Of a stretch of DNA of 64,000 bases, positions 2,369 through 45,785 are shown piece after piece; the first letter of the stretch is position 1; each line of letters begins with the position of its first letter. A model generated the notes under the pieces. That model made no database searches and had not been told where the DNA came from. It was given only the letters and a program-made list of their open reading frames with translations. The translations under genes were made by a program, and so were the position numbers. The DNA is from an uncultured Treponema sp. (GTDB lineage Bacteria > Spirochaetota > Spirochaetia > Treponematales > Treponemataceae), in assembly GCA_964429905.1 (NCBI GenBank), contig CAYSDV010000009.1, forward strand, positions 16,378 to 80,377. The letters are read 5' to 3'.

Positions 2369-3696
2369 TTCCGCATTTTAAAATCATCGTTTTGAACATA
2401 CTCATCATAAGAGCTGATTTTCCAGCCGTTTTCCTTTGCATAGGAAAGCGCCGCGAGAGTTGAAAGCACATTGTCCTTGTTTTCCAGAGATTCGACCGAG
2501 CTTTTAGGAAAGGAAGCAAAATAATCTTTCATTTTGTCTTTGGAAAAAGGATTGTCCGCCTCTTTTTGCAGCAAAGCGACCTGCCTTTCCCTTGCCTCGT
2601 CGCTTAGTTCATAATATTCGTTTTCTGTGTTCTGACTGAGCGAAACTGTTTTTCTTGGAACATACAGCGAGCTTGTGTCGATGAATTCATTTTTCTGCAC
2701 TCGGAATAAATTCTTAAAATCATCATCGTTTATATCATCATTTTGAACCAGAATCCGGATTGCCTTTTCAACGCAGCCTTTTAAGTCGAAGCCTTTGTTG
2801 CGCAGCATTCTTTCGCGCGCAATCGCAATTCTTATGTACGTGTTGATTTTTTGCTTTATGTCTTCCATTATTTTGTTGTAGTCGTCATGCAAAAAAGTTT
2901 TGGTTGAATCTATCATTTCTGAAATTTTCTCTTCCGCTTCTTCGCCTGTGATTTTTTCTTCGCTCATAAGATTTGCGGAAAGTTTTTCAAAGGATTCGCT
3001 TCTTAAACGTTCCAGCTCCTGCGTGATAAAATTTCTGTAAAGATGAATGTTCTGCTGTTTTACAAGCCTTGAATACTCGCGGATAAAATCTCCGTCACAA
3101 TATTTGATGATGTTTTCCGTAAGGCTTGCAAGACTTCCTTCGTGCAACATTGTCTCAATAATTTTTTTGATTGACGTTGAAAGTTTTTTAAGAGAAGAAG
3201 AAAGCACTTTTGCATCTTCAAAAACTGGCCGCAAAAGCAAACTGTACGGCTCGTTTTTCTGCTCGTTCGTCTGATATTTCAAGCGGTTGTAAATATTTAA
3301 AATGTAGTTTGAATATTCCGGACGGCTTGGTTTTGAAAGCTTTTCCAAAAATTCCGCGAGGGCAATTCCGTTGTCTGTCATCACAATGAATTTCTCAAAA
3401 GTTGTGTCGTCAGTTTCTTCCTCAAGATAGCCGGACGCAACAAATTTTCTGATTACAAAATTGGCCTGGTCGTTTCCGGCGGACAAATCTTCCGTGCCGT
3501 CTTCTTTTAGCTCAATGTGGTTCTGCAAAAGATAAAGAGCCAAAGAATCCCGGATATCAGCCCTTGGAAGCCGGTAAGAAACCGCGCTGCTGTACTGCCC
3601 GTAAACTGCGCCGAGGCAGCCTGCATAAGCCCTGTGGTTTGATGAGCTTGCAAGGCAGTTGAAAAATCCATCCGGAATAGAATCAAAAACATTCAT
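2347..3696 (-). CDS. jetA: JetA/MksF-like (kleisin-like) subunit
   Basis: 449 aa and first gene of the three-gene unit. It is largely helical and charged with no enzymatic motif. Assigned by position upstream of the jetB-like and SMC-like genes. Confidence 0.45.
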   Translation of the reverse strand: MNVFDSIPDGFFNCLASSSNHRAYAGCLGAVYGQYSSAVSYRLPRADIRDSLALYLLQNHIELKEDGTEDLSAGNDQANFVIRKFVASGYLEEETDDTTFEKFIVMTDNGIALAEFLEKLSKPSRPEYSNYILNIYNRLKYQTNEQKNEPYSLLLRPVFEDAKVLSSSLKKLSTSIKKIIETMLHEGSLASLTENIIKYCDGDFIREYSRLVKQQNIHLYRNFITQELERLRSESFEKLSANLMSEEKITGEEAEEKISEMIDSTKTFLHDDYNKIMEDIKQKINTYIRIAIARERMLRNKGFDLKGCVEKAIRILVQNDDINDDDFKNLFRVQKNEFIDTSSLYVPRKTVSLSQNTENEYYELSDEARERQVALLQKEADNPFSKDKMKDYFASFPKSSVESLENKDNVLSTLAALSYAKENGWKISSYDEYVQNDDFKMRKWEAKRK

Positions 3697-3829: not shown

Positions 3830-4810
3830 TTAAAACAAATCCAACATTGAATCCAGATAAACCGCCTCGCGCACTTCAAGCTGATGTTCGGGCTTTGTCA
3901 TGTAATACAAAAGAAATTCCAGCACAACTGCGCTCCCAAGTCCGCGCCCTTCAATCTTAAAGTTAGAAAATCCCATCGGAAAATATGTTTCCAGAATATC
4001 ATGAACGCCAATAAACGCGCGGTTCTTCATCGCAAGCGAAAAGCGGTAGCCGCCAGCCGCATCAGGAGATGAACATTTATGTTCGGGAACTTCTTCACCA
4101 AGATTTTTGCGGCTTACATTTTCATAGCAATTTTTCCGGTTCTTGCAGCCAAAATCACAGCATTCGTTGCAAAGAAATTCGGTTTTATCTTTTTGTGATT
4201 GAGTCAGTGCGGAAAGGCGATTAAATTCTTTGTTCAGCCGAAAGTCCGGCACAACAAACTTAAAGTCCGCCCGGTTCAGTTCCGCTTTAAAGTCATCAAA
4301 ATCCGTTAGAACTTTTGTAGTTGAAGAAACAAGATACAAACTCGGATAATTCGCCTTAAGATATTCCGCAAGCAAATCAGAGTGGACGATTACGCCGTTT
4401 TGAACAGAGGTTTCGATGCTTCGACAATGCTCAGCAACCACAGGCTCAACCTCCACTTTAGCTACAGACCTTGCCGGAACTTCCTTTTCAAACATTTTGC
4501 AAAGCTCATTGCATTTTCTGTCCGACAAATGCTCCTTTCTCAAAAGCGAATTGCTGAACGTGAGCCGACAAGAGATTCCGTACTCACTCATCAGCGTAAG
4601 AACATCGTCCGCACGGGCTTCGCCAAAGCCAGCTCTTCCGCCGCCCCAGAGACAATCCGCCGGAGCTCCGTAAACCGAGCCAATGTCGCACCAGCCGTAA
4701 AACCAATCACGGTGCGTGCGCCAAAGCGGAAGAAAAACCTTGTACAACTCGTAAAACTCAAAGAGACCGGGAAGATGATAATGTGCGACAGGAGTGGATT
4801 TTTTTTGCAT
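3830..4810 (-). CDS. hypothetical Cys-rich protein, possibly peptidase-U32-like at the C-terminus
   Basis: 326 aa. Cys cluster CNECCDFGCKNRKNC. C-terminal FKIEGRGLGS resembles the KIEGR motif I associate with U32-family proteins. Weak, from memory only. Confidence 0.3.
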   Translation of the reverse strand: MQKKSTPVAHYHLPGLFEFYELYKVFLPLWRTHRDWFYGWCDIGSVYGAPADCLWGGGRAGFGEARADDVLTLMSEYGISCRLTFSNSLLRKEHLSDRKCNELCKMFEKEVPARSVAKVEVEPVVAEHCRSIETSVQNGVIVHSDLLAEYLKANYPSLYLVSSTTKVLTDFDDFKAELNRADFKFVVPDFRLNKEFNRLSALTQSQKDKTEFLCNECCDFGCKNRKNCYENVSRKNLGEEVPEHKCSSPDAAGGYRFSLAMKNRAFIGVHDILETYFPMGFSNFKIEGRGLGSAVVLEFLLYYMTKPEHQLEVREAVYLDSMLDLF

Positions 4811-5036: not shown

Positions 5037-5792
5037 TTACTCATCACTAAAAAAAGAATGTATATCCTTAGCATTTTCAGTAAAACTTAATTCATCAATA
5101 ACAACCTTATCTTTCTTCCAAGAAAAACGATGTCTACAAATTTTATCTAAACTAGTAATAAGTTCTTCAACAATTTTGCATATATTTTCCGCCTCTTTTT
5201 TCATTACTTTTAAAACATCGCCAACTTTTTCATCTGTAGAAGTTGGTGCATAATTTAATATACCTTGTTTTAATTTTTCTTGTTTTGTTTTCAATATTGA
5301 GATTTGAAGAAATGACATACAAGCGGTTAGATATTTTTCAAAGTAAAATATTTCAGATTGCTGAAAATTTTTAAGATGATTTGCAAACACATTAGTTTTA
5401 AAAGGTTTATATTCAAAAAATTTGATTGCATTTATAAAACCATTCATTGCCGGAACATTTGCAGAATATACGTTCTCAGCAACAGCCATTTTTGGATTAA
5501 AAAAAAGCATTTCTGTGTACTTAATCTGTTTTATGAGTTGACAATATAATTCCCGTAAATTTCCGTATAACGCATTTTCAATATTTTTTTTGTTTAACAT
5601 GTATTTAATTATTTCGTCAAATAAAACAACAAAAGAACTACCAGATATACCTGATAAGATTGCTAACAGAAATTCTTTTGTTATAAAAGCATAAGCCCAC
5701 CATTGTTCAAAAATACTGACTATATAAGTCAGAAAAATAAAAACTATTGATACACAAACAAATATAACTATGTTTATTTTGTTTTCTTTCAT
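5037..5792 (-). CDS. membrane-anchored hypothetical protein (N-terminal TM helices plus soluble helical domain)
   Basis: 251 aa. Hydrophobic segments are IVIFVCVSIVFIFLTYIVSIF and LLAILSGISGSSFVVLF. Sits 80 nt downstream of res on the same strand. No recognisable motif. Confidence 0.4.
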   Translation of the reverse strand: MKENKINIVIFVCVSIVFIFLTYIVSIFEQWWAYAFITKEFLLAILSGISGSSFVVLFDEIIKYMLNKKNIENALYGNLRELYCQLIKQIKYTEMLFFNPKMAVAENVYSANVPAMNGFINAIKFFEYKPFKTNVFANHLKNFQQSEIFYFEKYLTACMSFLQISILKTKQEKLKQGILNYAPTSTDEKVGDVLKVMKKEAENICKIVEELITSLDKICRHRFSWKKDKVVIDELSFTENAKDIHSFFSDE

Positions 5793-5871: not shown

Positions 5872-8800
5872 TTACTTTATTCCGATTCTATCCTTTAAGC
5901 TTTCATAATTTGAAACTTGCTCATAGCGAACATTCTGCGTTGAAACGACATTGAACAGTTTTTTTGCGCACTCAATCTTGCTTTGCTCAATTTTCTTAAG
6001 CTGCATATCATCAAGAGTTCCCTTAGTTTCCGCAATAAAGAAAATGTGCTTTACCTTGTCTTTGTCAAAAGCAATCGCCCAGTCAGGAGCATAGTCGCCA
6101 ACAGGAGTTGGAATCTGAAACGAGTGCGGAAGGCGGGCATAAACCACAACTTCGTCCGCACTGTCAAGAGCGGATGCAAATTTCCATTCAACATTGCTGT
6201 CTGTAAAGACCAAGTCCTGAATGCATCTTTTTGCAATGAACGGTTCTTTGTCTGGAAGTTTTGACGCAGTAAAAATGCTTGAATCATAAGTTCCAGAAAG
6301 CTCATGATATTCAATATGCTCAACAATCTTTGTGGCTTTTTGGGCATTTATGATGTTTACAACATCGCGTATAAACTTTTCAGGATTAAAGCTGAACTGC
6401 TCCGTTTCTTTTACAGTAAGCCCGCTCAAAATCGTAGCAACAGTTTTTCGTGTAAGTTTACACCCTTTTGCAATTTCGCCAACTAAATCATATTTTGCAC
6501 TGCTCGAAACCGCCCTACTGATGTTTTTTGTCTCCGACTTGGCTCCTTCAAATGAAATTCCGATTCTAAGTTGTGCTTCGTCAATCTTGGACTTCTGGCT
6601 TCCTGTTTCAAGCGTGTAGCGCATTGGTGCAATGTGAAGATCTTTTTTTATCGCGTCAATGGAATTTTTTATTAATTCCTCGCTTGAAAAATGGCAAGTA
6701 TACGAATATTTGTGGTTGATTTTGTGCCAAAGCTCCTGGAACAGCTCCTTGTCAAAGTTTTTGTTGAGCGGATTTCCTTCTTTCCACTTTGGCTTTTGCG
6801 CGTTGTCCACCATTCCGTCAAGGGCGGAAGGATTGTAGACCGCCTGAATGAGCTTTTGTATTTGTGAAAACAGCTCCGTCTTTGCGTCAAGATTTTTCTG
6901 GAATTCTTCAGGAAATGTCTGAATCAGATTGTCTCCAAAGGTTTGAACATTTCCCTGCTCCACTGCGTTTTTGTAAACATCGGTGAGTTTGTCATCATCA
7001 TCAACATAGTCATTTTTAGAAAGATACTTGTTGATGATTTTCGCCTGTCTCTCGTCAATTTCAAACGTTTTTCCCAAGACAGTGATTGTCTTTCCTTCAA
7101 AATACGCCGCATCCGCAATCTTTGGTCTGGAATCACTAAGTTCAGCAGTAATGTCCCTCTGAAGTCCGTCAACAAAATCCGCGTAACTTTCGCTTGCCAC
7201 AACAGTAAGCGTGTTTACGTCCTGCACATTGTCGCCTAGGACATCCTTGTCTTGCCTTGCTCCCAGTTCGTTTACGCATAGCCTCATTCCGCGCCCAACT
7301 TCCTGCCTGCGGCTTACATTGTTGTCTGAATGTTTGAGTGTACAAATCTGGAACACATTTGGATTATCCCATCCTTCGCGAAGAGCCGAATGTGAAAAGA
7401 TAAAGCGAATTGGCATGTCAAAATCTAAAAGCAAGTCTTTGCGCTTTAAAATCAAGTCGTAGGTAGAAATGTCCGCTTCGCTTTCGCCATTTGAATCAAC
7501 CGCTCTGCCTTTTTTATCAATGCTAAAATATCCTTCGTGGACTTTTTCAATCTGGCTCAATGTAGGAAGAAGCCTTTTCTGATAGTAGCCGTCAGGATTT
7601 ATGTCAGCAAAATCGTTCATCACAGACTTGTATTCTTCCTCGAACATTTTTCCGTATTCGCCAAGAGCCTCGTTTCCGTCATCGTCGTAGGCGCGGTATT
7701 TTGAAACTTCGTCAATAAAGAAAAGCGAAAGAACTTTTATTTTTAATCCTTGCTCAAAAAATTCTTGTTCCTTTTCAAAGTGGCTTCGGATTGTCTCCCG
7801 TATTTGCACGCGGCGAATGTCTTTTTCCGCGACATTGCCCGTCATCTCGCCCATAAAAAGCGTGTTCGGGTCAGAGTTTGAGCATACAGCCTTGTTGAAC
7901 CTAACCGCGTTCTCTCTAGGAAGAATTTCTGCAACATAGATTCCTTTGTACTCAGCAAGTCCATTGCTTGCTTCTTCAAGTTTGTCGCCTACTCCAAGAG
8001 TCACATAAACACGTTTTATTCCGCTGTTCTGTTTTTTTTCAATTTCCAGTTTTACAAGAGGAGCAGAATGTGGCGAAAGGATGATTGATTCAGCATAGAT
8101 ATACGTGTTAGTTCCAGAGATGTTTTCAAGGCGGAATCCTTTTACTTCAATTTTCTTTACAAGCTTTTTGTTGTATGCGTCCACAGCGTCAAGGCGATAA
8201 ACAAGATTGTGATGAATTTTATGAGTTGCGGAATAGTTCATTATAAAAAGCGGATTGAACTGCTTTAGTGCGTTTTGCGTTGCTTCTCCGCCCATTTTCT
8301 GCGGCTCGTCAAGAATCAAAATGGGGCGGTTCGCACTAATTACATCAATCGGACGGCGGCTTTGAAACTCATCACGCTTTGTGTAGATAATGCGGGCAGC
8401 CTCATTTCCCTTTCTTCCCGCGACATTTTTATCTTTGTTCAAAGAAGTGTTGAATGCCTGCATATTTATAATCATCACGTTTATGTCGGAACTGCTTGAA
8501 TACTGGTCTATCAAGTTAAGATTCTTGCTGTTGTAGATAAAAAACCGGAGCTTTTTGCCGTACTTCTGCATAAAATGCTCCTGCGTGTACTCAAGGCTTT
8601 TGAAAATTCCCTCGCGGATTGCGACGCTTGGAACAATCACAATGAACTTGCTCCAGCCGTAGACTTTATTCAGCTCGTACATTGTCTTTGTGTAGACATA
8701 AGTTTTTCCAGTTCCGGTTTCCATTTCAATATCAAAGCTTGGAACACCCGAACTCCGTTCTATTTTCTGCGAGCGGATTATAAAGTTTGCGTCCTGCACT

Positions 8801-9012
8801 TTGTGGATATTGCCAAGAAGCTCCCTGTCACTTAAAGCCAAGTCCGCGTTTTTGTAGCCGTAATCATCATCAAAATCAAGGCTGGAATTGTCTGTGTTGC
8901 CTCTGTCGCGCAAATACTGGATTTTGCCTGCAAACTGCTGGCCTTCAAAACATTTTACAATGGAATCCACCGCGTCCGTCTGATACTGTTGTATTTTAAA
9001 TGTAAATTTCAT
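5872..9012 (-). CDS. res: type III restriction endonuclease Res subunit (SF2 helicase plus C-terminal PD-(D/E)xK)
   Basis: 1046 aa. Motif I is METGTGKTYVYT, motif II is ILILDEPQKM, and FSHSALREGWDNPNVFQI is the late helicase motif. C-terminal PDWAIAF...FFIAETKG is the nuclease motif. Confidence 0.85.
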   Translation of the reverse strand: MKFTFKIQQYQTDAVDSIVKCFEGQQFAGKIQYLRDRGNTDNSSLDFDDDYGYKNADLALSDRELLGNIHKVQDANFIIRSQKIERSSGVPSFDIEMETGTGKTYVYTKTMYELNKVYGWSKFIVIVPSVAIREGIFKSLEYTQEHFMQKYGKKLRFFIYNSKNLNLIDQYSSSSDINVMIINMQAFNTSLNKDKNVAGRKGNEAARIIYTKRDEFQSRRPIDVISANRPILILDEPQKMGGEATQNALKQFNPLFIMNYSATHKIHHNLVYRLDAVDAYNKKLVKKIEVKGFRLENISGTNTYIYAESIILSPHSAPLVKLEIEKKQNSGIKRVYVTLGVGDKLEEASNGLAEYKGIYVAEILPRENAVRFNKAVCSNSDPNTLFMGEMTGNVAEKDIRRVQIRETIRSHFEKEQEFFEQGLKIKVLSLFFIDEVSKYRAYDDDGNEALGEYGKMFEEEYKSVMNDFADINPDGYYQKRLLPTLSQIEKVHEGYFSIDKKGRAVDSNGESEADISTYDLILKRKDLLLDFDMPIRFIFSHSALREGWDNPNVFQICTLKHSDNNVSRRQEVGRGMRLCVNELGARQDKDVLGDNVQDVNTLTVVASESYADFVDGLQRDITAELSDSRPKIADAAYFEGKTITVLGKTFEIDERQAKIINKYLSKNDYVDDDDKLTDVYKNAVEQGNVQTFGDNLIQTFPEEFQKNLDAKTELFSQIQKLIQAVYNPSALDGMVDNAQKPKWKEGNPLNKNFDKELFQELWHKINHKYSYTCHFSSEELIKNSIDAIKKDLHIAPMRYTLETGSQKSKIDEAQLRIGISFEGAKSETKNISRAVSSSAKYDLVGEIAKGCKLTRKTVATILSGLTVKETEQFSFNPEKFIRDVVNIINAQKATKIVEHIEYHELSGTYDSSIFTASKLPDKEPFIAKRCIQDLVFTDSNVEWKFASALDSADEVVVYARLPHSFQIPTPVGDYAPDWAIAFDKDKVKHIFFIAETKGTLDDMQLKKIEQSKIECAKKLFNVVSTQNVRYEQVSNYESLKDRIGIK

Positions 9013-9025: not shown

Positions 9026-10450
9026 CTATGACTTATTTATAATTTCCCAGTGGCCGCTAAAACCACTTCCAACAAATTGAATTTTATCTTTCATTTTTTC
9101 AATATGTCTTGCAACTGTTTTTGAACTAACTTTTGCTTTCATAGCGATTTCATCTCTTGTAACTTTATTGTTGTTTTTTATTTCATTTAAAATAAATAGA
9201 TCCAAATCTTGAGGGACAGTTTGGAGGACATCTTGAGGGACAGTTTGAAGGACATCTTGAGAGACAGTTTTTCTGGAGATACGCTCAAACGTTATAGAAC
9301 AGTCAAGCTCATTTTCTTGAAATTTTGGAATATTGATTTTTGCATCTTTACATTCTTGATTCATCCGTCTAAAACCACTTCCCCATTCTTCCATCAATTT
9401 CATAAACCTAAAGACTTTTGCAATAACAGGATTTCTAGAAACAGATTTTCCGTTCAATGCACTTTCAAGAGAAAGTCCAGCCACGAGACGTCCTGGAGAC
9501 ACTATTTCAACTCTGTCATCATAAATTGCAATCTGAGTTGGCTCTTCTATCATGTAGCTTCTGTGAACAACCGCATTTACAATTGCTTCGCGGAGAGCAT
9601 TCACAGGGATTTCAAAATCATCAATTCCTTGCATTCCCACAAATTTTATTCCGACTTTCAGATTCCTAAGAATAAAATTGAGAGCCTGCTCAACTTGCTC
9701 AAAAATTGCACCTGAACAGTCTAGCTTGTCTAAGAAAATTGACTTATCAGTTCCTTTAAAACAGGCACAGCGAATTCCACAGCGGGAAAAATCATAAAAG
9801 TTTGACGATGTTAAAATTGCATAGGCATTTGTTGGAACTAATTCGCCGTTTATGTTTTTTAAAACACCAAGACTTTCAAGTGTTCTTTCTGTTACTGTTA
9901 TATTGTGGATTCCGGCGCTTTCAATACGTTTCTGAATTTGCAGGCAAAGATTCAAAGTACTCTGTGAATTAAAATGGGCTTTATCATTCATAAGATTTAC
10001 AGATTTTTGCGAATCAAATGAACTTCTTATTCCATTTAATTCAAGTTCTCTAAGTGAATAAAAATCTGCAGGTCTGCTTGTTGCTCCAATTCTAATAAAA
10101 GTTCCATTTTCTTTTCCCTTTGATTTTAAAAAACAAGGTGTGTGATTTGTTGGAAAAATCTCAAGAACAATTACAGTTTTTTCCTCTATAGTTTGAACGT
10201 TTATGCTCGGCGAAATCAATGGTTCAATACTGTCACTGATACTGTTTATTATAGAATCCTGAAGTTTATAAATATCACCATCAATTCCTACAACTTCTAA
10301 AGTTTTATCATCAATTCCAAAAATGATTGTTCCACCTGAAGTGTTTGAAAACGCAGAAACAGTTTTTAAAAAATTTTCCTTTCGTTCCGGAATAGTACGT
10401 TTAAACTCAATATTTACAGATTCTCCTTTTTTGATTTCTTCGATATTCAT
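9026..10450 (-). CDS. AlbA_2 (Schlafen-type) DNA-binding domain protein with HATPase_c_4-like core and C-terminal wHTH
   Basis: 474 aa. N-terminus is GESVNIEFKRTIPE...LKTVSAFSNTSGGTIIFGIDDKT. C-terminus VTRDEIAMKAKVSSKTVARHIEKM is HTH-like. Confidence 0.7.
   Translation of the reverse strand: MNIEEIKKGESVNIEFKRTIPERKENFLKTVSAFSNTSGGTIIFGIDDKTLEVVGIDGDIYKLQDSIINSISDSIEPLISPSINVQTIEEKTVIVLEIFPTNHTPCFLKSKGKENGTFIRIGATSRPADFYSLRELELNGIRSSFDSQKSVNLMNDKAHFNSQSTLNLCLQIQKRIESAGIHNITVTERTLESLGVLKNINGELVPTNAYAILTSSNFYDFSRCGIRCACFKGTDKSIFLDKLDCSGAIFEQVEQALNFILRNLKVGIKFVGMQGIDDFEIPVNALREAIVNAVVHRSYMIEEPTQIAIYDDRVEIVSPGRLVAGLSLESALNGKSVSRNPVIAKVFRFMKLMEEWGSGFRRMNQECKDAKINIPKFQENELDCSITFERISRKTVSQDVLQTVPQDVLQTVPQDLDLFILNEIKNNNKVTRDEIAMKAKVSSKTVARHIEKMKDKIQFVGSGFSGHWEIINKS
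9207..9270 (-). repeat. in-frame 24-nt tandem repeat, about 2.7 copies, inside the AlbA_2 gene
   Basis: The + strand reads tcttgagggacagtttggaggaca / tcttgagggacagtttgaaggaca / tcttgagagacagttt. This encodes QDVLQTVPQDVLQTVPQD. Confidence 0.9.
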
Positions 10451-10576
10451 TCAGCCTTATCTCCTATAATTTTTCTTTACAAAATCTTCCTTTGCCTGTC
10501 CGTCGAATACGTTGCGATTTTGCACGAAATCTCATTGCTTTTGCCGTACCTCTACAACTTATTTGTGCTAGTATTT

Positions 10577-11773
10577 TCAATACAAGAATCCCAAAAGCCA
10601 GATTGGAATTCTTCGCTCTGTTCCATATTCAATGTTGTCTGCAAGAATATATGAATCAGGAACATCTTTTATCTGCCTGCGTTTTTTGTTTTTTCCGCCA
10701 ACTTCAAATGTGTATTTTTGGTTTACGAAAAAATCACCTTGTTCAGAAAACAAAACTTCGTGACTATGCGAAAGCTGATTGAATGCAAAAGTTTCACGGA
10801 CATTTCCAACATCGGTCTGAATATCATCAAACATATACATGAGATTTGTGTTTTCAAGAAAAATCTTGTCCGGCTTTTCAAGCGTTCCAAGTCCTCGGCT
10901 CTGCTTAAAAACTTGATAAATCAATTTTGATTCTTCCAGATATTCAAAATACTGCAATAAAGTCTGACGAGAAATTTGAATTGAAGAAGCAATCTCTGTT
11001 ACATTCGGAATGAACGGCGCAGATTTTCCAATTACAGCAAGCAGTTTTTTGATTTTTACGATATATGCGACATCTAGTTTTCTAAGCTGCGGAAGTTCAA
11101 TTTCAAGAATAAGGTTCACAGTTTCGTTCAATCGGATGTAGTAATCATCAATTCCTTCAAGGAAATACGGATAATAGCCGTGCTTGAGATAATCTGAAAA
11201 ATATTCAAAAGGCTTGATTTTGGAAACAATTTGAGATGAAAGATTTTCATTGTTCTGCAAGATTTCTTCAAGCGAAAGAATAGGAAAGTCGGTTTTTGCA
11301 TTAAGATTCAGATATTCTCTAAAAGAAAGCCCTTGCAAATTGTACACTAGAGAACGACGGCTCAAATCAGAACGTGCGTTCAAAATTTCAAGAAGAGAAG
11401 AGCCTGTAAAAACCAGGTGCAGCTCAGGATAATCATCATAAATGTTTTTGATTGCACGCGACCAGTCCGGGTACTTATGAACTTCATCAAGAAAAAGATG
11501 TGTTCCGCCTCTTTTTACAAAGCCGTCCACAAAATCAAGAAGCGAATTGTCAGAAAAATAAAGATTGTCAAGGCTCACATAAAGCACTTTGTCCAACGAG
11601 TCAGCAAAAGTCTTTTTTATGTGCTGAAGAATAAGCGTTGTTTTTCCCGTGCCCCTGGAACCGCGAATGCAAATAAGACGAGCGTTCCAGTTGACTTGAC
11701 TTTCCAAGCTGCGAACAAAAGTCATTTCCGTAGAGGCGATTTTTTTTCTGAATATCTCTATAAGTCTTTCCAT
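10577..11773 (-). CDS. AAA family ATPase (AAA_14 plus DUF4143-type)
   Basis: 398 aa. Walker A is GSRGTGKTTLILQ and Walker B is HLFLDEVHKYPDW. Length and C-terminal layout are typical of DUF4143 ATPases. Confidence 0.7.
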   Translation of the reverse strand: MERLIEIFRKKIASTEMTFVRSLESQVNWNARLICIRGSRGTGKTTLILQHIKKTFADSLDKVLYVSLDNLYFSDNSLLDFVDGFVKRGGTHLFLDEVHKYPDWSRAIKNIYDDYPELHLVFTGSSLLEILNARSDLSRRSLVYNLQGLSFREYLNLNAKTDFPILSLEEILQNNENLSSQIVSKIKPFEYFSDYLKHGYYPYFLEGIDDYYIRLNETVNLILEIELPQLRKLDVAYIVKIKKLLAVIGKSAPFIPNVTEIASSIQISRQTLLQYFEYLEESKLIYQVFKQSRGLGTLEKPDKIFLENTNLMYMFDDIQTDVGNVRETFAFNQLSHSHEVLFSEQGDFFVNQKYTFEVGGKNKKRRQIKDVPDSYILADNIEYGTERRIPIWLLGFLY

Positions 11774-11802
11774 ATATTATACTATATTCCAATAGTGCGA
11801 AA

Positions 11803-11854
11803 TTGTTAAGTCTAGTTAACGATTTTTAGTAAATTTTGTTAAGTAGAGTTAACG
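11803..11854. promoter_or_regulatory. two 19-nt direct repeats, TTGTTAAGTCTAGTTAACG and TTGTTAAGTAGAGTTAACG, upstream of the AAA ATPase gene
   Basis: Copies at 11803-11821 and 11836-11854, 33 nt start to start, 30-80 nt upstream of the ATG at 11773. Each ends in or contains GTTAAC. Confidence 0.3.
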
Positions 11855-11917
11855 TTTTACAAAGAGCATCTATTGCATGTATCTGATATTTTTGTATTTT
11901 AAATGTGAATTCTATGT

Positions 11918-12946
11918 TTAGTTTTTCTCCAACTTTGCAGTTTCTTCTGCAAATAAATCAAAGTCACTTTTGAAAAGTTTATCTTGAATTACACGATATA
12001 TTTCAAATTCAGATTCTGCCTTATCTTTGGCTATTTCTGTCGAGATTTTACCTGCATTTTTAAGAATATCCCTGTCATCCGCCAGAAGAAATTTGTCAAT
12101 TCTTCCAGCCCAGTCTTCCATAGTCATAGGAATCTTACGCTTGGCACGATTTTCAGCTATATCCAGAAAGGCACTTACAATATGCTCAAGGTCATCTATT
12201 TCTTCTTTTGAAAGATAATTCTTTGCAACCGCTACATCGCTTTTAATGATTTTTCCATTTGGTGCATTTTTCCAAGTTGTCAGCCCCATGTTCTGTTTTG
12301 TATGGTCTGCTCGGTCATATACGATTTCTGCCGCTGTCTGATGGCTAACGGCAAAATGAAGCTTGTTCTGAACTTTTGCAAAAAACTCTTTAGTTATAGG
12401 AGCATCTTTATCATAATCCATTGATGTAGAATAAATGTCTGTGATTTTCTGATAAAAACGCCTTTCGCTAAGACGAATTTCCCTGATTTCTTCAAGAAGC
12501 TCTTCAAAATAATCTTCTCCCAAGAAAGTGCCGTTTTCCATTCTCTTTTTGTCTAAGACATAACCCTTTATTGCATACTGTTGCAAAATCTGAGTTGCCC
12601 AACGGCGGAATTGAGTTGCCCTTATAGAATTAACTCTATATCCAACAGAAATAATTGCCTCAAGATTGTAGTGAAGAATATCTCTTGAAACTTCTCTGCC
12701 ACCTTCTTTTTGAACTACTCGAAATTTTCGAGTAGTTGAATCTTCTGTAATTTCTTTAGTTTTGAATAAATCTTTCAAATGATAAGTAATGGTATTTGAT
12801 TCAACAGAGAAAAGTTGGGCCATCATTTTTTGAGTAAGCCACAAAGTATTGTCTTCGTAGCGCACTTCGACACTATCTTCCTTTGCCTGTGTTTTAAATA
12901 TTAAAAATTCCGCCGCACTAGAACGGATAGAAAGTTCTTTTTCCAT
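11918..12946 (-). CDS. rhuM: RhuM family virulence/defence-associated protein
   Basis: 342 aa. N-terminus VEVRYEDNTLWLTQKMMAQLFSVESNTITYHLKDLFKTKEI and central ISVGYRVNSIRATQFRRWATQIL are characteristic of RhuM-family proteins. Confidence 0.75.
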   Translation of the reverse strand: MEKELSIRSSAAEFLIFKTQAKEDSVEVRYEDNTLWLTQKMMAQLFSVESNTITYHLKDLFKTKEITEDSTTRKFRVVQKEGGREVSRDILHYNLEAIISVGYRVNSIRATQFRRWATQILQQYAIKGYVLDKKRMENGTFLGEDYFEELLEEIREIRLSERRFYQKITDIYSTSMDYDKDAPITKEFFAKVQNKLHFAVSHQTAAEIVYDRADHTKQNMGLTTWKNAPNGKIIKSDVAVAKNYLSKEEIDDLEHIVSAFLDIAENRAKRKIPMTMEDWAGRIDKFLLADDRDILKNAGKISTEIAKDKAESEFEIYRVIQDKLFKSDFDLFAEETAKLEKN

Positions 12947-12949: not shown

Positions 12950-14934
12950 TTACAGCACCTTCCTTACCGTGTCCGGCGAATACGTGGCGAAAATCTGCTC
13001 AAAATTGGTGATAAGGCTGTCGCCGTTCAGTGAATTTGACGGGTCACGCATTACAAAATAATACGGCTTTTCTTTTGCAATCTGCGTTACCGTTTCTTCG
13101 CTTATGTCCGTGTCAAAGCAAGCCATAAGATTGTTGCCTTCCACGCAGAAAACTTTATTGCCGCCAAGATTTTTTGTTTCAATTTTGCTTGAAAGCATAA
13201 TTCCCAGGTCGAGCATCACTTGGAAAAGGAGGTCTTCGCCTGTGCGGTCAGTCTTGATGTTGTCTTTGAAAAAATCTTTTGTATCGATATTATCTGGACT
13301 GTAGTAAACATCTTCCATGTTGGAAGTATCAATTTTGAGAACGCGAAAGCCAATGTCTAAGCTATCAGGCAATGTTGTTGTCCCCCCCCCGTCATTTGTT
13401 TAGCAGTGTTTACAATCTTCTGTCCAGCACGACGGATACGCTCTTTGCCAATTTCGCAGATATTCTTATAACCCGCCTTATACGCTTCGCTCTTTTCATC
13501 AGTTTCTTCGGGCAACTGCACCATTATAAATTTACGATTTCCACCATCTTCGGCATTTAACTGCATAACAGCGTGAGCTGTGGTAGCAGAGCCACTAAAA
13601 AAATCTAATATAATATCATCTTCATTGGTCACAAAATCAATAATTCTAGCTATAATTTTGTGAGGTTTTGGATTTTCAAACACCTTACTGCCATCAAACA
13701 AATCCGATAATAATTTTGTTTCCGCTCTATTATCTTCGTATATCATACTTTTAAGCTGTTCTTTTGCCGTTGAAAGACGTTTCTTTATATGAGGCTGTGT
13801 TGTATGGTCAATTCCCCAATGCACTTCTCCTTGCTCTACCCATTTTTGGAATGTTTTTTCGGGCCAACGCCATCCGTTTGCTGGTTTTGGACAAGGCTGA
13901 TTTGTTTCACAATGCAATATATCAAACATATACCCACCTGGATGAGGGTTCGATGAATTGGAAGATGCACTATACACACCTTTTTCATCCACACAATTAT
14001 AATGAGAAACTTGGTTTAGCTTTGCTTTATTGGCACTTATCCATTCTCTTAATTTTGATTGAATAATAGAAATATCGCTTTCGTTTGCCTTGATTTTTTC
14101 ATATTGACTTTGAATACTTTCCGCCGCCTCGCTTATTCTATACCAAGGTTGCAAAGACATTTTATTTTTGGCATAACAAACCATATATTCGTGTTCTTCA
14201 TTTATTTGTGTAGGATTATTATCAGTTGCAGTTTGAAGCACAATCGTTCCCAAATAGTTTGACTTTGAGAAAATTTCATTACATATAGTTTCCAAAGTTT
14301 CTAATTCATGTCCATCAATAGAAATAAATATAACTCCGTCATCTGACAACAAATCCTTTGCCAATTTCAATCTCGGATAAATCATATTGAGCCAATCAGT
14401 ATGGAAACGACCGTTGCTTTCGGTGTTGCGAGTATAGCTGTCTACAAGCTGGTTTCCTTCTTCGTCAAAGTTTCCGCTCTTCTCTGAAAACTCGGAACTG
14501 GAAACTGAAAACTCGTCATTGTATACAAAATCATTCCCCGTATTATACGGCGGGTCTATGTAAATCATCTTGATTTTCCCAAGATAAGTCTCCTGTAAGA
14601 GCTTCAGCACTTCCAAGTTATCGCCCTCGATATAGAGGTTTTCTGTGGTATCGAAGTCTACGCTTTCCTCACGGCAAGGACGAAGCGTTTTGGAAATGGG
14701 AGCGTTCGCCAGCAGGACAGACTTCTTCTTGTCCGGCCAGGTGAACTGATACCGTTCCTCTTTGCCGTCCACGACCTTGACGGAAATCTCCTGCATCAGC
14801 ACATCCTTGTCAATGGCACGAACTACCTCGCCATTCTCGTCAATGGTCTCGGTCACGGCATTGGGGAACAGTGCGGCGAGTTTCTTATAGTTTTCATCTG
14901 CATTATTTTGTGTGTGCATTTTTAAGTGTGTCAT
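12950..14934 (-). pseudogene. mod: type III DNA methyltransferase Mod, interrupted by a frameshift in a G9 tract (ORFs 13357..14934 plus 12950..13372)
   Basis: The upstream ORF has IYIDPPYNTGNDF (motif IV) and ILDFFSGSATTAHAV (motif I). The downstream ORF starts LPDSLDIGFRVLKIDTSN, a typical Mod C-terminus. Adding one G to the tract gives ...AKQMTGGGTTTLPDSLDIGFRV..., an uninterrupted ~661-aa protein. Confidence 0.85.
13382..13390 (-). repeat. homopolymeric G9 tract (C9 on + strand) at the mod frameshift
   Basis: Sequence 13381-13391 reads t ccccccccc g. Confidence 0.95.
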
Positions 14935-14959: not shown

Positions 14960-15640
14960 CTAATTCTTTAATAATTGTGTATCTATAAATATATGATGTA
15001 TAAAATCAGAAAGTTTATTATCTCTTTCCAACTTTAAGCTTTTATAAACTTCTGTAATAGCTTTTTCCCAGTCTTCTTTTGTTTCAATTTTATCTGTTAC
15101 AGTCTTATCATTCAAAAAATAAATAAATAAAAGATGGGCATCTATTTTATTTAATTCCCTAAGATAATAAAGATGAGCAATTCTGTTTGCATACTGATAG
15201 TAGTTTTCTTTGAACCAACTGATGTCTGATTTTACATTCAGAAATTCTTTTGTTGCTGCAAGACTTTTTTCAATCAAATCTAGAGAGTTTTGTGATGCTT
15301 TTGTGGAATCAATCATTTGTTCACTTATATGTGCTTTAGCTTCCATAATAAAAACAGTATCTTTATCTTTGGCTAAGCCATCCCAGTTTGCGCCACCATT
15401 AGGCCAGAATTCTTTTAGTGGTTTTGTAATTGTTGATTCTATTCCCAATCTATTAATAAAATCCTGGTCAGCATATTCTGCATAGCAATCATCTTCGCGA
15501 GGAGAAAGCCATTCAAGATTAATAGGTTTATTAAAAATCTTCGATAATTCCTGATTTAAAATATCTTGATTTTTATTTGCGAGTAATTGCAAGTCTTTTT
15601 GGCTTCCATGTGTATCATCTGTAAAAGTTTTTCTTGCCAT
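14960..15640 (-). CDS. hypothetical protein, possible PD-(D/E)xK nuclease fold
   Basis: 226 aa. NWDGLAKDKDTVFIMEAKAH fits D-x(n)-E-x-K. Sits between the short AlbA_2 gene (4-nt gap) and mod. Confidence 0.3.
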   Translation of the reverse strand: MARKTFTDDTHGSQKDLQLLANKNQDILNQELSKIFNKPINLEWLSPREDDCYAEYADQDFINRLGIESTITKPLKEFWPNGGANWDGLAKDKDTVFIMEAKAHISEQMIDSTKASQNSLDLIEKSLAATKEFLNVKSDISWFKENYYQYANRIAHLYYLRELNKIDAHLLFIYFLNDKTVTDKIETKEDWEKAITEVYKSLKLERDNKLSDFIHHIFIDTQLLKN

Positions 15641-15643: not shown

Positions 15644-16573
15644 CTATTTCTCCGTATTTATTTTCCAATAACCTGTTTTCTTAGAGCCTTCACGCTTTAT
15701 AAGCAACAGTTCTTCGGAAAGCCTTTTTGCAGCCCTTTCAACAGTTGCGTGTGAAAACCCTGTTGTTCCAATAATTTCTTTTGAGGAAATCTGTCCTTTT
15801 TCTTTTATTATCGAAAGAATTTTCTGTTCTTTATCCGAAAGATTTAATCCCTCATTTAATCCCTCATTTGTTTTCTTTTTCAAAGAATTCTTTTTTGCAT
15901 ACGACTTTCGCTTTACTGTAACTGCAAAAAATGCAGATGTAGATTTATACATAGGTTCTTCTATGTCGTTTTCCGCACATATTTCCCGTATTCGTTTTAG
16001 TCCAGTTCCCCAATGCTCCACAAGTCGCATTTTTAAGAAAGCGTCTGCTAGAACCTCATTTCTTACGCTGGAACGACCATCAAGAATATCTTGAATCGTA
16101 AGCCCGCCAATCAAACCGCCCGGACTGACAATCTCATCAAAGGTTTTGTTCATTCCCAAAAGACTCAGTTCCTGTATTTTGTATCGTTCTGCCGCCCGAG
16201 TAGTTGCATCAACTCTGATATAAACGCCTTCGAGACCTTCTGATTTTATGCAATACGGAGTATTCTGACCTTTTGCAATGTTTATTATTATGACAGTCTT
16301 ATCTTCAATTCTTTCAAATGAAATTTGAGGAATTATCTGCGGACTTATATTGTCGGATATTGAATTTGAAATCTTATCTTTTATCTTAAACACTTCATCG
16401 TCATTTACATCAATAATATCAAAAGTTTTATCATCAATGCCAATAATTATATTTCCACCGTTTCCGTTTGCAAACGCGACGATTGTCTTCAAGACTTTTT
16501 TCTCTTTATCTGGAAACTCCCGTTTAAATTCAAGAGAGTCACTTTCGCCTTTTTTAATATCTTCTATTTTCAT
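15644..16573 (-). CDS. short AlbA_2-domain protein with C-terminal wHTH (lacks the central region of the 474-aa paralog)
   Basis: 309 aa. N-terminus is GESDSLEFKREFPD...LKTIVAFANGNGGNIIIGIDDKT. C-terminus is ISSKEIIGTTGFSHATVERAAKRL. Confidence 0.65.
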   Translation of the reverse strand: MKIEDIKKGESDSLEFKREFPDKEKKVLKTIVAFANGNGGNIIIGIDDKTFDIIDVNDDEVFKIKDKISNSISDNISPQIIPQISFERIEDKTVIIINIAKGQNTPYCIKSEGLEGVYIRVDATTRAAERYKIQELSLLGMNKTFDEIVSPGGLIGGLTIQDILDGRSSVRNEVLADAFLKMRLVEHWGTGLKRIREICAENDIEEPMYKSTSAFFAVTVKRKSYAKKNSLKKKTNEGLNEGLNLSDKEQKILSIIKEKGQISSKEIIGTTGFSHATVERAAKRLSEELLLIKREGSKKTGYWKINTEK

Positions 16574-17178
16574 AGAGATTTCAACTCCTCTTCAAATTTT
16601 CTTTTCCGATTCACAAGCTCAAACTTCTTTTTTGGCTGGACTTCCTTGCGTGCAAGTTTTTCTAATCTGTCTATTTCTTTTTGCAGCTTTTCTTTCTTTT
16701 CCTTAATCTCAATATTTTCTTCAAGACTAAGGCTATTATTCCATTCGCCGCCTGCGATTTTTTTTATTATGTTTTCCCGGACTTTATCAAAATCAAGTCC
16801 ATTAAGTGCAAGAACTGCGTCCTGCCGTTTTTTCCATTCAGAAACAAAAAGTTTTTCATAGAAAACTGCCAGCTGAACCTCTTCTTCAAACTGCAAGGCA
16901 AAAACTAGATTCTGCGGAATGAGCTTTGCAATTTTTTCAATGTTCTTAGGCTCGTAGTTTTTTGTTTTTAGCATGACGCTTAGAACATAAAAGCCTTTCA
17001 CTTTCTTTCCTTCAAGAATTGACGGAATTGTTCTTGTGCTTACTTCATTTACAATATCAATTCGGCTTATGTCCGAATCAAACTTACTCTGCTGTGCGTT
17101 TGTAAACTGAAATTTTCTGTAAATCTGAACTTTTGGCAAAGGCTTATAAATATCTGTTGCTTGAGGTAAATTAAGCAT
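16570..17178 (-). CDS. DUF4391-like protein
   Basis: 202 aa. It overlaps the SNF2 gene by 8 nt and the next gene by 4 nt. The N-terminal pattern LPKVQIYRKF...ISRIDIVNEVSTRTI...YVLSVMLKTKNYEPKNIEKIAKLIPQNLVF, and the position between helicase and methylase, match what I recall for DUF4391. Confidence 0.5.
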   Translation of the reverse strand: MLNLPQATDIYKPLPKVQIYRKFQFTNAQQSKFDSDISRIDIVNEVSTRTIPSILEGKKVKGFYVLSVMLKTKNYEPKNIEKIAKLIPQNLVFALQFEEEVQLAVFYEKLFVSEWKKRQDAVLALNGLDFDKVRENIIKKIAGGEWNNSLSLEENIEIKEKKEKLQKEIDRLEKLARKEVQPKKKFELVNRKRKFEEELKSL

Positions 17179-20100
17179 TAAGTGCTCCTTTTGTTTCGCA
17201 TGTCTCAGCCACAGTTTTTTTTACAACAAGAAAACAAATCAATTCAAAATCATCAAGGCCTTTAATCTGAGTGTGTTTAAAATCTACTGTATCTCCGGTA
17301 AGGAATGAATCAATATTGCTCTCATCTTTTACTTTTATTATGGAAGAAATGGAATCACATAAAAGGCGGCTATAAACTTTCATATTTTTTCCGTCTTTTG
17401 TTTCCGAATTGAACTGATGGTAAACTTCCGGAACAGGCTCGCTTTTTCCTCTGCACATCAGACGCATTTTGTCTAGCAGTTTCTTAGGATTAAGATGGTT
17501 GCAGACAATACCTCCGTCTTCACCAATATAAACCATATAAAATGGATGCAACCTGTTCTGGCTGTCTATGTTCACACTGTTGTTTCTGTTTTTTAAAACA
17601 TAAATAACACCAGGCGGACATTCCTGTGCCGATTGTGCCACTGCATGAAGTCCAAAAGGTGTATTGTCCAAATCACCATGTTTTTTTACATATTCAAGTA
17701 AATCCAGACGGAACTCGTTAAGACCTAAGTCCATAATATTAATTCCGCCGTTCATTTCTTCAATATCGATAACCTCATCTTTTAGTTTTTGAAGCTGTTC
17801 TTTTCTGTAATCCAAATCTTTCTGCTCATCTTCAAGGATATTGTCGTCGGCAGTTGCCGCCATATCAACAATTTTCATTCTTGTTTCTACACGGCTTTTA
17901 AGATTGATATACTCATCAAGAGTTAAATCCGGCCAAAAGTTTACAAGCTGAATTTGTTTGTTTTTGCTACCGATACGGTCAATACGTCCAAAACGTTGAA
18001 TAATTCGGACTGGATTCCAGTGTATATCATAGTTAATAAGATAGTCGCAGTCTTGCAAGTTCTGTCCTTCACTGATGCAGTCTGTAGCAATAAGCAAGTC
18101 AATGCTCCGCTTGTCATCAGGAAAAATGACATTCTTATCTTTTGAAAGCGGAGAAAAATAAGTAAGAACAGCATTTAAATCACAATGGAAGTTTTCAAGT
18201 GTGGTTTTTCCTTCTGTCGTGCCGCTAATCATTGCCGAATCAAGACTATAATTTTCTTTGATAAATCCGCTTAGATTGTTGTAAAGATAATCCGCTGTGT
18301 CTGCAAATGCTGTAAAGACAATAATTTTTTTGTTTCCTTCGTTTATTGGATTTTCAATTTTCTTGCATATTATCTCAATGAGTTTCTGAAGTTTTGAATC
18401 TTTTTCCGGTGTGATGTCAGAAATAAGACTTTCAAGTCCAAAAAGAACTGCTTCATCATATTTCAAATCCTTAAGCCAGGAAACATAATCCATGTCATTC
18501 AAATCAATTTTTACTTTTTTTCCAATCGAAAAAATATCGCTTGAGTTCTGGTCGTCTAAATCGTAATCATCATCCATTGAAATATCTGTAAGATTGATAT
18601 TCATATCATTTTTGTTTTTCTCAAACTCTTCAATGATTTTGATTGTCTGCATAATATATTTCTTTACTCTCTGAACTGTAAGACGGAATGAATAGACTGA
18701 ACTTTCAAGTCGCTTTAAAAGGTTTATTGCCATAAGACGACGAATTCCGCTTTCACGTCCCATCTGGTCAAAACCGCCCGCCCCCGACTCATTGTCTGTA
18801 TCGAGGTTATATTTTTCACGTTTGCTTGAGTGTATAAAATGAGAAGGTACATAAATAGAAAGTTTTAGTTTGTTTAGCTCTTCAAAAATCAGATTGAATG
18901 TAGCTTCATTATCATCTTTTGTGAGCGGTGTTTGGATTGAAATAGGATGTAGCCTTTCCGGAAAAGTTCCAATGTCCTTAGTATCATAATATTTTTGAAT
19001 ATGCTTGCGACTTCTTGCAATTGTAACGCTGTCAAGAACTTCAAAAAAGTCAAAGCTCAGCATGCTTAAAAGATTTTCAGTAGTACGTTCCTCCGCTTCA
19101 AATCGACTCCATTTATTAAATGAAACCTGTGCCTGGCGGAATATGTCTTCAATAGAACTTTTAGTATTTAAGTTTCTGTCAAGATTTTCAGCGACTCCTT
19201 CATAGGCAAGTGCAAGCTGATTTCTTAAATCAATAAAGCGGTTGTTCACAGGAGTTGCACTGAGCATTAAAACTTTTGTCTTAACTCCCGTTTTAACAAC
19301 TTTTTCCATAAGCTGCATATAGCGGTTTTCTTTTGTATTTGAATGGGTTCCTATGCCGTTGCGGAAATTATGAGATTCATCAATTACAACAAGGTCATAG
19401 TTTCCCCAATTTATATATGAAAGGTCGTTTCCGTTCGACTGACCATGCGTTCTATTCAAGTCGGTGTGGAACAGAACATCATAACGAAGCCTGTCGTCTG
19501 CAATCGGATTATTTTTATAATTTCCTTTGTAAATATTCCAGTTATTCGCAAGTTTCTTAGGACAAAGCACTAGAACACGGCTATTGCGACTTTCAAAATA
19601 TTTAACTACAGAAAGCGCGGTAAACGTTTTTCCAAGACCAACGCTGTCAGCAAGAATGCAGCCGTTGTATTTTTCAAGTTTGTTGATTATCGCAAGGCAG
19701 GCATCTTTCTGAAAGTTATAAAGCTTATTCCATATTGCGCTCTGCTTAAATCCTGTTGCTTCCTTTGGCAGTACATCTTCGCTAATATCATCAAGGAATT
19801 CTCTAAAAATATTATAAAGAGTTACAAAATAAATAAATTCCGGTGGATTTTCTGTATAAGCAGAAGCTATACTTTCGATAACCTGATTAGTTACATCCTT
19901 CATCATATCAGCATCATCCCAAAACTGCTCAAACGTCTGCAAAAAGCCTATGCTCATAGGAGCTTTCATTTTTGTAATTGCAAAAGCGGCATTATTTCCC
20001 TTTTCAACGCCAAGCTCTACTGCTGTAAACTCTTTTACAGGATTGTAATTTGTTTCATCAACATTTATAAATGAAGGCATATTCTGCTGCGTGGAGTTAG

Positions 20101-20461
20101 ACTTAAAAACAGCCTTTTTCTTAATCCATTCGGCACACTCTTTTGCGACAGCTTTCTGATTCAACTCATTGCGAAGTTTTACTTCAAATTCAGTGCCGTA
20201 AAGGCTTCTTTCCCGATTTAGACGAGGTATATAAAACTCACGCTTTTCTTTTTTTGCTTTATCTACAACAAATGTCGGAGAGGTAAATATAAAACGAAGC
20301 TCATCAATATTCTTTAATTCATTTTTCAATTCCTGATATGCATAAATAGAAAAACAGGCCGCAGCAATAGAAACTTTGCTGCCAGGCTTTATTTCTTCCT
20401 TTATACTTTGGCTCAAAGTTTTATGCACATTATCAATAAATTCAGGCGATGACATATCCAT
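17171..20461 (-). CDS. SNF2-family helicase with an N-terminal PLD-like (HKD-less) region
   Basis: 1096 aa. Motifs are [15 protein letters not shown] (I), [12 protein letters not shown] (II), [14 protein letters not shown] (III) and [37 protein letters not shown] (V-VI). Confidence 0.8.
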   Translation of the reverse strand: [1096 protein letters not shown]

Positions 20462-25944: not shown

Positions 25945-25952
25945 CCCCCCCC
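25945..25952 (-). repeat. G8 homopolymer (C8 on + strand) 5 nt upstream of the 25939 start codon
   Basis: The minus strand reads GGTAGGGGGGGGAAGAAATG. Confidence 0.9.
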
Positions 25953-41885: not shown

Positions 41886-41905
41886 AAACTCACCAATATT
41901 TGAAT
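41668..41905. repeat. ~240-bp near-identical direct repeat, copy 1 (partner 48241-48479)
   Basis: Aligned by eye with one mismatch and one 1-nt indel. It covers the 5' end and upstream leader of the IucA/IucC-like gene. Confidence 0.85.
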
Positions 41906-41908
41906 ATA

Positions 41909-42190
41909 TCATATAAAATGTATATATGCAAGCAAGCATATGCAAGCAAGCATTGCAAAATTATTTGGAAACTTTAGCGAAAAAATCTGTTCGTTACCTT
42001 TTGCGGCTTTTGCGTTCAGATTTAGATTCTTTGCCGCTTCAAGCATTCCTTTTAAAGATGTTCCTTGCCTGTCTGTACCAGCTGCTTCCCGAATTTTTAT
42101 AATTGAAAGATGACTGCCAAAGTGTGTTGCTATCATTGCAAGACAAGCGGCTCCGCAATCTGTTTCATCGAATTGTTTTATGAATTTCAT
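41909..42190 (-). pseudogene. truncated C39-ABC exporter (N-terminal ~75 aa only)
   Basis: MKFIKQFDETDCGAACLAMIATHFGSHLSIIKIREAAGTDRQGTSLKGMLEAAKNLNLNAKAAKGNEQIFSLKFP parallels residues 1-75 of 35101..37230, then diverges. The junction carries a duplicated TGCAAGCAAGCAT. Confidence 0.8.
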
Positions 42191-44296: not shown

Positions 44297-44298
44297 TT

Positions 44299-45747: not shown

Positions 45748-45760
45748 TCAATTTCCTTAA

Positions 45761-45785
45761 GTGCTCAAAGAAATTCTTTGAGCAC
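45761..45785 (-). terminator. perfect 10-bp stem-loop between precursor 2 and the modification genes (attenuator or processing-site candidate)
   Basis: GTGCTCAAAG-aaatt-CTTTGAGCAC, 11 nt after the precursor stop. Confidence 0.45.

Follow-up and report, generated by a model that had tools for sequence, protein, structure and literature searches.

A length-variable poly-G tract separating catalytic core and C-terminal domain in a Type III mod gene of an uncultured Treponema

We analysed a stretch of 64,000 nucleotides from the genome of an uncultured Treponema sp. (GenBank assembly GCA_964429905.1, contig CAYSDV010000009.1, forward-strand positions 16,378 to 80,377; this whole stretch is called the window), in which mod, the gene for the modification subunit belonging to a restriction-modification (R-M) system of Type III, is interrupted at a run of nine G residues (13382-13390). 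The length of this tract differs among near-identical copies of the locus in public metagenome assemblies, and full-length as well as broken forms of Mod are found. The tract lies at a domain boundary, behind the complete methyltransferase (MTase) domain and ahead of a C-terminal domain (CTD) that is homologous to the CTD of EcoP15I Mod. A slippage-driven ON/OFF switch of full-length Mod is the best explanation for these observations, and on the present evidence a probable one. While slippage-switched mod genes are of a well-known kind, a tract between the catalytic core and the domain expected to dock the restriction subunit Res is unusual.

A G9 tract breaks the reading frame of mod

The tract is C9 on the forward strand of the window and G9 on the strand of mod. 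In the G9 state the frame starting at 14934 reads ...AKQMTGGG and then runs out of frame through QQHCLIA to a stop codon at 13357, yielding a product of 525 amino acids (aa) with the C-terminal residues ...AKQMTGGGQQHCLIA. The frame beyond the break is open down to 12950. When the tract was resized in silico, full-length Mod was obtained with G7 (660 aa), G10 (661 aa) and G13 (662 aa), and broken products of 522-526 aa with G8, G9, G11 and G12. The tract is flanked by the sequences GCTAAACAAATGAC and ACAACAACATTGCC, and the junction of the G10 form reads ...AKQMTGGGTTTLPDSLDIGFRVLKIDTSN....

The GC content near the tract is approximately 38%. Counted with overlap over the whole window, homopolymeric stretches of at least 7 G or C residues were observed 5 times, compared with 0.62 expected, and none of 100 shuffled sequences reached 5; the second and last run of at least this length is a C8 at 25945-25952. 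Both the tract and the frame break are confirmed. An earlier reading of the same DNA, made without database searches (the sequence-only reading), had described a Type III mod frame broken at a conspicuous G9 run and had proposed that G10 or G7 would restore a protein of ~661 aa. These claims were borne out in full, and the junction it quoted is exact.

In the text of a 2018 survey of REBASE (PMC5909438; Atack et al. 2018), mod genes with a mononucleotide tract of at least 9 residues are taken as potentially phase-variable, which applied to 662 of 3805 mod genes. The G9 run of the window falls into this category; Treponema is not named in the main text of that survey.

Tract length differs among near-identical copies

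Copies of mod were found via a protein-identity index and the DNA was fetched for each Mod form. Contigs carrying the 140-aa open reading frame (ORF) downstream of the break, or the downstream RhuM gene, were added. Tract lengths were read from assembly consensus sequences. The route via the 140-aa ORF favours OFF states; the RhuM route is blind to the state of the tract, and it yielded the second of two G10 copies. Within one 90% cluster, identical Mod (100% aa identity) is stored as 525, 520, 526 and 661 aa, the 525-aa form being that of the window and the 520-aa form a shorter start call.

Outside the window, G9 was read in ten samples from about five projects and from two assembly pipelines, ENA MEGAHIT-type and Logan (ERZ27271034, ERZ27271053, SRR22923238, SRR6824171, SRR6824204, SRR6824205, SRR17244095, SRR17244094, SRR17244090 and SRR34938333). 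G10, which encodes full-length Mod, was read in ERZ27271029 and, via the RhuM route, in SRR6824175, and the tract of ERZ27271040 is G12, again a broken state. Both G10 copies contain a perfect 661-aa ORF without any other lesion, and the 140-codon CTD frame is open in all copies. Apart from the tract, the copies and the DNA around them are near-identical (8 mismatches in 75.6 kb aligned). As a homopolymer control, eight A/T runs of 8-9 nt were followed in the same contigs; 19 observations revealed no change in length, while both G/C runs of the window (13382-13390 and 25945-25952) do differ among these contigs.

Thus, in-frame and out-of-frame lengths occur among close relatives with constant flanks, as described for contingency loci built on simple sequence repeats (SSRs). 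Length polymorphism on a near-identical background is what a slippage-driven contingency locus predicts. Slipped-strand hypermutability of the tract is well supported, and the pattern of G9, G10 and G12 speaks strongly against a one-off sequencing error, which the sequence-only reading had kept as the alternative to its proposal that mod is likely phase-variable. That proposal gains from the same variation, which includes the two full-length G10 copies. Scans for the exact flanks of the tract gave zero matches in GTDB species representatives and, with a variable gap that admits any tract length, zero matches in JGI metagenome contigs.

Where tract or allele variants co-occur in a sample, mod was present on short bubble contigs (2116-2404 bp; three contigs) whose 85-bp flanks are identical. 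Many of the contigs from Logan stop within the region of mod that encodes target recognition. In metagenome assemblies, fragmentation of this locus is systematic.

The tract separates the methyltransferase core from the C-terminal domain

Mod of the window, translated in the G10 state, matches the PADLOC model MTase_III end to end (E 2e-219, residues 2-659), and the Pfam domain N6_N4_Mtase (PF01555) covers residues 121-474. A match to EcoP15I Mod (4zcf) was obtained with an E value of 1.7e-96 at an identity of about 30%. The catalytic motif IV (DPPY, residues 127-130) stands N-terminal to motif I (FxGxG), which is present as FSGS at 446-449 within DFFSGSATT, and the target recognition domain (TRD) is inserted between the two. 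Homology in sequence and fold extends over the whole length of the protein, CTD included, and a Res partner with superfamily 2 (SF2) helicase and endonuclease domains is encoded in the locus, although not adjacent to mod. This is a genuine mod gene of Type III, and by homology its product is a beta-class N6-adenine methyltransferase of the EcoP15I type.

An AlphaFold2 (AF2) model of G10 Mod was built from an alignment of 43 homologues and reached a predicted local distance difference test score (pLDDT) of 78.7. In this model the final helix of the MTase domain spans residues 492-514 and is followed by a coil at 517-521 (pLDDT <50), to which most Gly codons of the tract belong; residues 530-660 form an alpha/beta domain that is modelled with confidence. 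Compared with EcoP15I ModA in Foldseek, the model gave a query-normalized TM-score (TMq) of 0.71 over 671 columns. When the CTD (the 140-aa ORF) was modelled alone, the only significant matches in the PDB were chains of EcoP15I Mod, aligned over 111-112 columns with a root-mean-square deviation (rmsd) of 3.6-4.2 A. Many positions of the CTD are invariant among the 43 homologues.

The tract corresponds to codons 516-518 of 661, past the complete MTase domain, and encodes a Gly run when in frame. Since it follows all MTase motifs and lies in a linker, the G9 product lacks nothing but the CTD and retains the N-terminal domain (NTD), the catalytic motifs and the TRD. EcoP15I Mod is divided into NTD 14-60, MTase 62-262 and 390-516, TRD 263-384 and CTD 539-644 (PMC4490356).

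A proposed switch and the state of the G9 form

We propose that slipped-strand mispairing at replication alters the length of the tract. G10, and likewise G7 or G13, would give the full Mod of ~661 aa, whereas G9 and G12 would give 525- and 526-aa proteins consisting of NTD, MTase and TRD, with the CTD left as an unfused 140-codon ORF. Any in-frame length would probably be tolerated, as the Gly run is predicted to fall into a disordered linker; such tolerance is typical of maintained contingency tracts. On this proposal, switching would be frequent and reversible.

In EcoP15I, the CTD of ModA contacts Res extensively while that of ModB faces the solvent (PMC4490356). By homology, the CTD of one Mod protomer would dock Res here as well, and the G9 state would uncouple or weaken the assembly of Mod with Res, turning restriction off. 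Such uncoupling is the most likely effect of G9. That an OFF state would silence restriction, as the sequence-only reading had argued, hence stays plausible, while the route it gave, lost target recognition, is not supported, the TRD being retained. Its further step, from OFF to loss of Mod and so to a phasevarion, fares no better, as the tract follows a complete MTase domain and the core is kept.

Methylation in the G9 state is about equally likely to persist and to be lost. EcoP15I Mod2, which dimerizes via its NTD and MTase domains, is active as a methyltransferase by itself (PMC4490356). By analogy the core could dimerize and methylate, but the truncated protein might be unstable. We found no experiments with C-terminally truncated Mod in the EcoP15I papers or in the Type III review, and the activity of the core alone therefore rests on the structural description in PMC4490356.

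A more specific form of the switch, which we regard as a tentative possibility, makes the tract a device for uncoupling domains. The G9 form would be an active stand-alone methyltransferase that keeps the genome methylated, and a change to G10 would fuse the CTD and switch restriction on in a genome that is already protected. In the G9 state the CTD would be either absent or made separately from the TTG codon at 13372, with the G-run serving as Shine-Dalgarno sequence.

A tract-free sister allele and possible decay of mod

A second mod allele of the same population, encoding 757 aa (or 752), occupies the same island in other samples (eight contigs). ERZ27271040 contains both this allele and the G12 copy, the former on a bubble contig whose flanks are identical. 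Against the window, identity is ~98% for the flanks of the 757-aa allele and ~89% for the 5' part of mod and the sequence just upstream of it. No alignment was possible for the TRD, and the linker lacks similarity, the site of the G-run being taken up by a low-complexity linker of ~110 aa. An identity of 98% resumes 33 nt past the start of the tract and continues through the CTD and onward. The two alleles are thus conserved at their 5' and 3' ends and vary in the TRD, with an SSR in one of them only, and this pattern of identity makes the allele boundary coincide with the linker between MTase and CTD. On these alignments the CTD belongs to a constant, Res-side module; it differs between the alleles at few positions, arranged as a mosaic near the recombination junction. 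In one contig with the 757-aa allele (L097), the gene upstream of the 226-aa ORF encodes 476 aa without a Pfam hit and replaces the 309-aa AlbA_2 protein.

Two G9 contigs from one project (SRR17244094 and SRR17244090) share an in-frame deletion of 351 bp in mod, which removes 117 codons, including the S-adenosylmethionine (AdoMet) motif I, and the ends of which fall within the microhomology GTTGGCCCGAA / GTTGCCCGAA. The methyltransferase is therefore being lost in at least one sublineage, as would fit a gene that is mostly OFF and under relaxed selection.

Several points weigh against a switch. Of 13 samples, 10 have G9 as their consensus, and the locus could be a broken gene with a drifting tract. 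The sister allele has no tract at all (no G/C run of at least 6). The 351-bp deletion is further decay of the kind expected of a pseudogene and is partial evidence for one. As the copies are nearly identical, the absence of further lesions has little power, and Illumina errors in G-runs may still account for some of the three calls other than G9. In functional terms, loss of the CTD might merely weaken coupling, as Res of EcoP15I also touches the MTase domain of ModA (PMC4490356).

The main rival explanation is a decaying pseudogene, in which mod was frameshifted at the G-run, is being lost and shows neutral slippage noise in its tract. The predominance of G9 and the 351-bp deletion speak for it, as does the intact, tract-free allele that circulates at the locus. 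We nevertheless consider it unlikely. Two independent G10 copies have retained a perfect 661-aa ORF, the CTD frame is open in every copy, and res and the neighbouring genes are intact. The tract lies in a linker where insertion of Gly is predicted to be harmless, as for a maintained contingency tract, and a predominance of OFF states is also known from accepted phase-variable mod genes, OFF lengths being present in most strains for H. pylori modH (PMC3230613). The sequence-only reading had named fixation of G9 in all relatives together with degradation of mod as one finding that would speak against phase variation; degradation is seen, as the deletion in two samples, and fixation is not.

Methylome switching, recoding and artefact

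In a classical phasevarion, G9 would abolish the activity of Mod, and methylome and regulon would switch ON and OFF together. In favour of this, an SSR of the length used in the REBASE survey text (PMC5909438) is present in a mod of Type III, the two alleles at the locus share conserved ends but differ in the TRD, as in modA and modH, and a truncated protein with a foreign tail of 7 aa could be unstable. However, catalytic motifs, TRD and NTD are all encoded upstream of the tract, EcoP15I Mod2 acts as a methyltransferase on its own with the CTD of one protomer idle (PMC4490356), and res is intact here, whereas the Type III review notes that mutations in res may leave the restriction endonuclease non-functional in phase-variable systems. 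We therefore judge a phasevarion rather improbable, and variable restriction, that is, variable barriers to phage and DNA uptake, is the likely phenotype rather than a variable methylome.

The CTD ORF begins with a TTG codon at 13372, and the G-run forms a strong Shine-Dalgarno-like element 9 nt upstream of it. With a generic anti-Shine-Dalgarno sequence assumed, the run scored -10.6 kcal/mol, against -5.2 as the median of 43 ORF starts within the window. The stop codon of the Mod core overlaps the CTD ORF. Together, the Shine-Dalgarno-like run and the overlap make independent translation of the CTD possible, if speculative.

Programmed recoding would make G9 functional and fixed, with -1 frameshifting or transcriptional slippage setting the ratio of short to full-length Mod. 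The predominance of G9 across projects would suit this, tRNA-Gly can re-pair in the -1 frame on a G-run, the product of a -1 shift equals that of G10, and a Mod2Res1 complex uses one CTD only (PMC4490356). Programmed -1 frameshift sites combine a slippery sequence with an RNA structure; the G-run alone could slip, but no stimulatory structure was found in the 112 nt 3' of the tract (z = -0.06; 91 of 200 shuffled sequences fold equally well), G10 and G12 exist as genomic variants, and homologues lack a run at this site. Recoding is accordingly very unlikely. Least probable of all explanations, and to us scarcely credible, is an artefact of sequencing or assembly with a true tract in frame and G9 a miscall: homopolymers are error-prone, yet G9 recurs in ten other samples and both pipelines, the same pipelines report G10 and G12, and A/T runs of 8-9 nt never differ.

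Gene order and neighbouring genes

The features of the locus are listed in Table 1. All genes from the SNF2 helicase to res are on the minus strand.

Table 1. Positions of the tract, the mod reading frames and neighbouring features in the window
Feature	Position	Strand	Remarks
SNF2-family helicase	17171-20461	minus	upstream companion gene
DUF4391 protein	16570-17178	minus	companion of the helicase
AlbA_2/HATPase_c_4/HTH protein, 309 aa	15644-16573	minus	between the DUF4391 gene and mod; shorter paralogue
226-aa protein	14960-15640	minus	between the AlbA_2 gene and mod; without assigned family
mod core ORF, G9 state	13357-14934	minus	525 aa; NTD, MTase motifs, TRD, 7-aa out-of-frame tail
351-bp in-frame deletion	13507-13857 (approximate)	minus	117 codons, including AdoMet motif I; contigs L009 and L012
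poly-G tract	13382-13390	minus	C9 on the forward strand, G9 on the strand of mod
CTD ORF	12950-13372	minus	140 aa, TTG start; residues 522-661 of G10 Mod
RhuM family	11918-12946	minus	first of three genes between mod and res
AAA_14/DUF4143 ATPase	10577-11773	minus	between mod and res; PADLOC candidate PDC-S01
AlbA_2/HATPase_c_4/HTH protein	9026-10450	minus	between mod and res
res	5872-9012	minus	Type III restriction subunit, intact, 1046 aa; ResIII and RE_endonuc domains
Wadjet JetA (PF18982)	2347-3696	minus	just past res
DUF4194 JetB-like protein	1625-2368	minus	Wadjet; just past res
G8 run	25945-25952	minus	sole other long G-run of the window

The product of res matches NF012027 over residues 1-1041 and the PADLOC model REase_III with an E value of 3.3e-281. 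Among the three genes inserted between mod and res (9026-12946), the PADLOC candidate models PDC-S05 and PDC-S01 were matched. The RhuM gene starts 4 nt past the mod stop codon, and its translation may therefore be coupled to the CTD frame. With the Wadjet genes just past the R-M system, the region is a defence island. The two ORFs that lie between the Wadjet genes and res (3830-4810 and 5037-5792) have no Pfam match. Predicted promoters and terminators between 8800 and 20800 were no more numerous than in shuffled sequences (41 compared with 35.3, and 8 compared with 7.3).

Gene order was compared with that of 80 related loci in GTDB genomes. In 66 of these, Mod is followed by Res, directly in many, and an SNF2 helicase precedes Mod in 46; a DUF4391 gene was found by tblastn in 13. 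The locus is therefore built on a helicase-(DUF4391)-Mod-Res core that is widespread, while the extra genes of the window are inserts. G/C runs of at least 9 are present in mod in three of the 80 distant loci. In two Bacteroides metagenome-assembled genomes (MAGs; the pair L021 6105 / L022 6107), a G9 near codon 35 and a C9 near codon 36 are in frame, while a G11 at about codon 464 breaks the frame in a Mucispirillum MAG (L091 7294). At the linker site none of the Mod homologues has a run, and homologues of 76% identity read AEENPEAQFDGG there. These comparisons suggest that homopolymer tracts were gained independently within the Mod family, and the linker position is specific to the 661-aa allele.

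The second G-run (25945-25952) lies 11 nt past the stop codon of a flavodoxin-like ORF (26523-25963) and 5 nt ahead of the ATG (25939) of a 72-aa ORF without a family match. The window and SRR6824180 have G8 here, and SRR6824175 and SRR6824177 have G10. G10 puts an upstream ATG in frame and extends the 72-aa ORF to 79 aa (MVGGGEEMIDAIL...). This run is a candidate for a second contingency tract, one that would affect the initiation of translation.

Elsewhere in the window, a 10-kb stretch at ~38000-48000 has a GC content of 26-28%, compared with 33-40% in the remainder, and contains a series of ORFs on the minus strand; a locus for surface glycans or one gained by horizontal transfer is a possibility here. 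For two housekeeping-type proteins encoded in the window, the best matches come from MAGs of uncultured Treponema, at 89% and 71% identity; for the latter, the next matches, at ~50%, are in Treponema MAGs from rumen, horse and deer.

Discussion

The locus belongs to an uncultured Treponema of the gut or rumen type, and its ON and OFF variants are directly visible in public metagenomes. Its tract position means that an interrupted mod gene does not automatically equal loss of methylation. For the annotation of MAGs, split genes of this type are to be read as biological variants, not as assembly errors. If the Mod core is active alone, the locus would be a natural example of defence being toggled while self-protection is kept. 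Should the tract indeed uncouple the two domains, defence could be toggled without the risk of self-restriction that re-activation of an R-M system carries, and allele exchange at the linker would let new MTase-TRD cassettes join a constant CTD-Res module.

The SNF2-DUF4391-Mod-Res loci of gut and environmental bacteria have the same gene order as the window, and their proteins are 40-63% identical; a literature search on DUF4391 found no paper characterizing this arrangement. Their mod runs are at codons ~35-36 or ~464, in contrast to the CTD linker position seen here.

Within the genus, poly-G tracts of T. pallidum (tprE/G/J, tprL and tp0126) vary in length in vivo, from 7 to 11 G and most often 9 (PMC7864442). 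They share with the mod tract the length of the G-run and its variation, which makes poly-G hypermutability in Treponema credible. The T. pallidum tracts, however, lie in promoters and act on the transcription of outer-membrane proteins, whereas the mod tract is intragenic and acts on the frame of an R-M gene.

With EcoP15I (Mod2Res1) the system shares the four-domain architecture of Mod, that is, NTD, MTase with motif IV ahead of motif I, inserted TRD and CTD. EcoP15I differs in that it has no repeat tract, in that its mod and res are adjacent, and in the lack of SNF2 and DUF4391 companions.

Among the closest known systems is H. pylori modH, also a Type III mod with a G tract inside the ORF, a tract length that varies between strains, common OFF lengths, and alleles with conserved ends and different TRDs (PMC3230613, PMC5909438). 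The Treponema tract follows the whole MTase domain, and its OFF product keeps the catalytic core. The host here is an uncultured Treponema, and res is intact and lies three genes away from mod.

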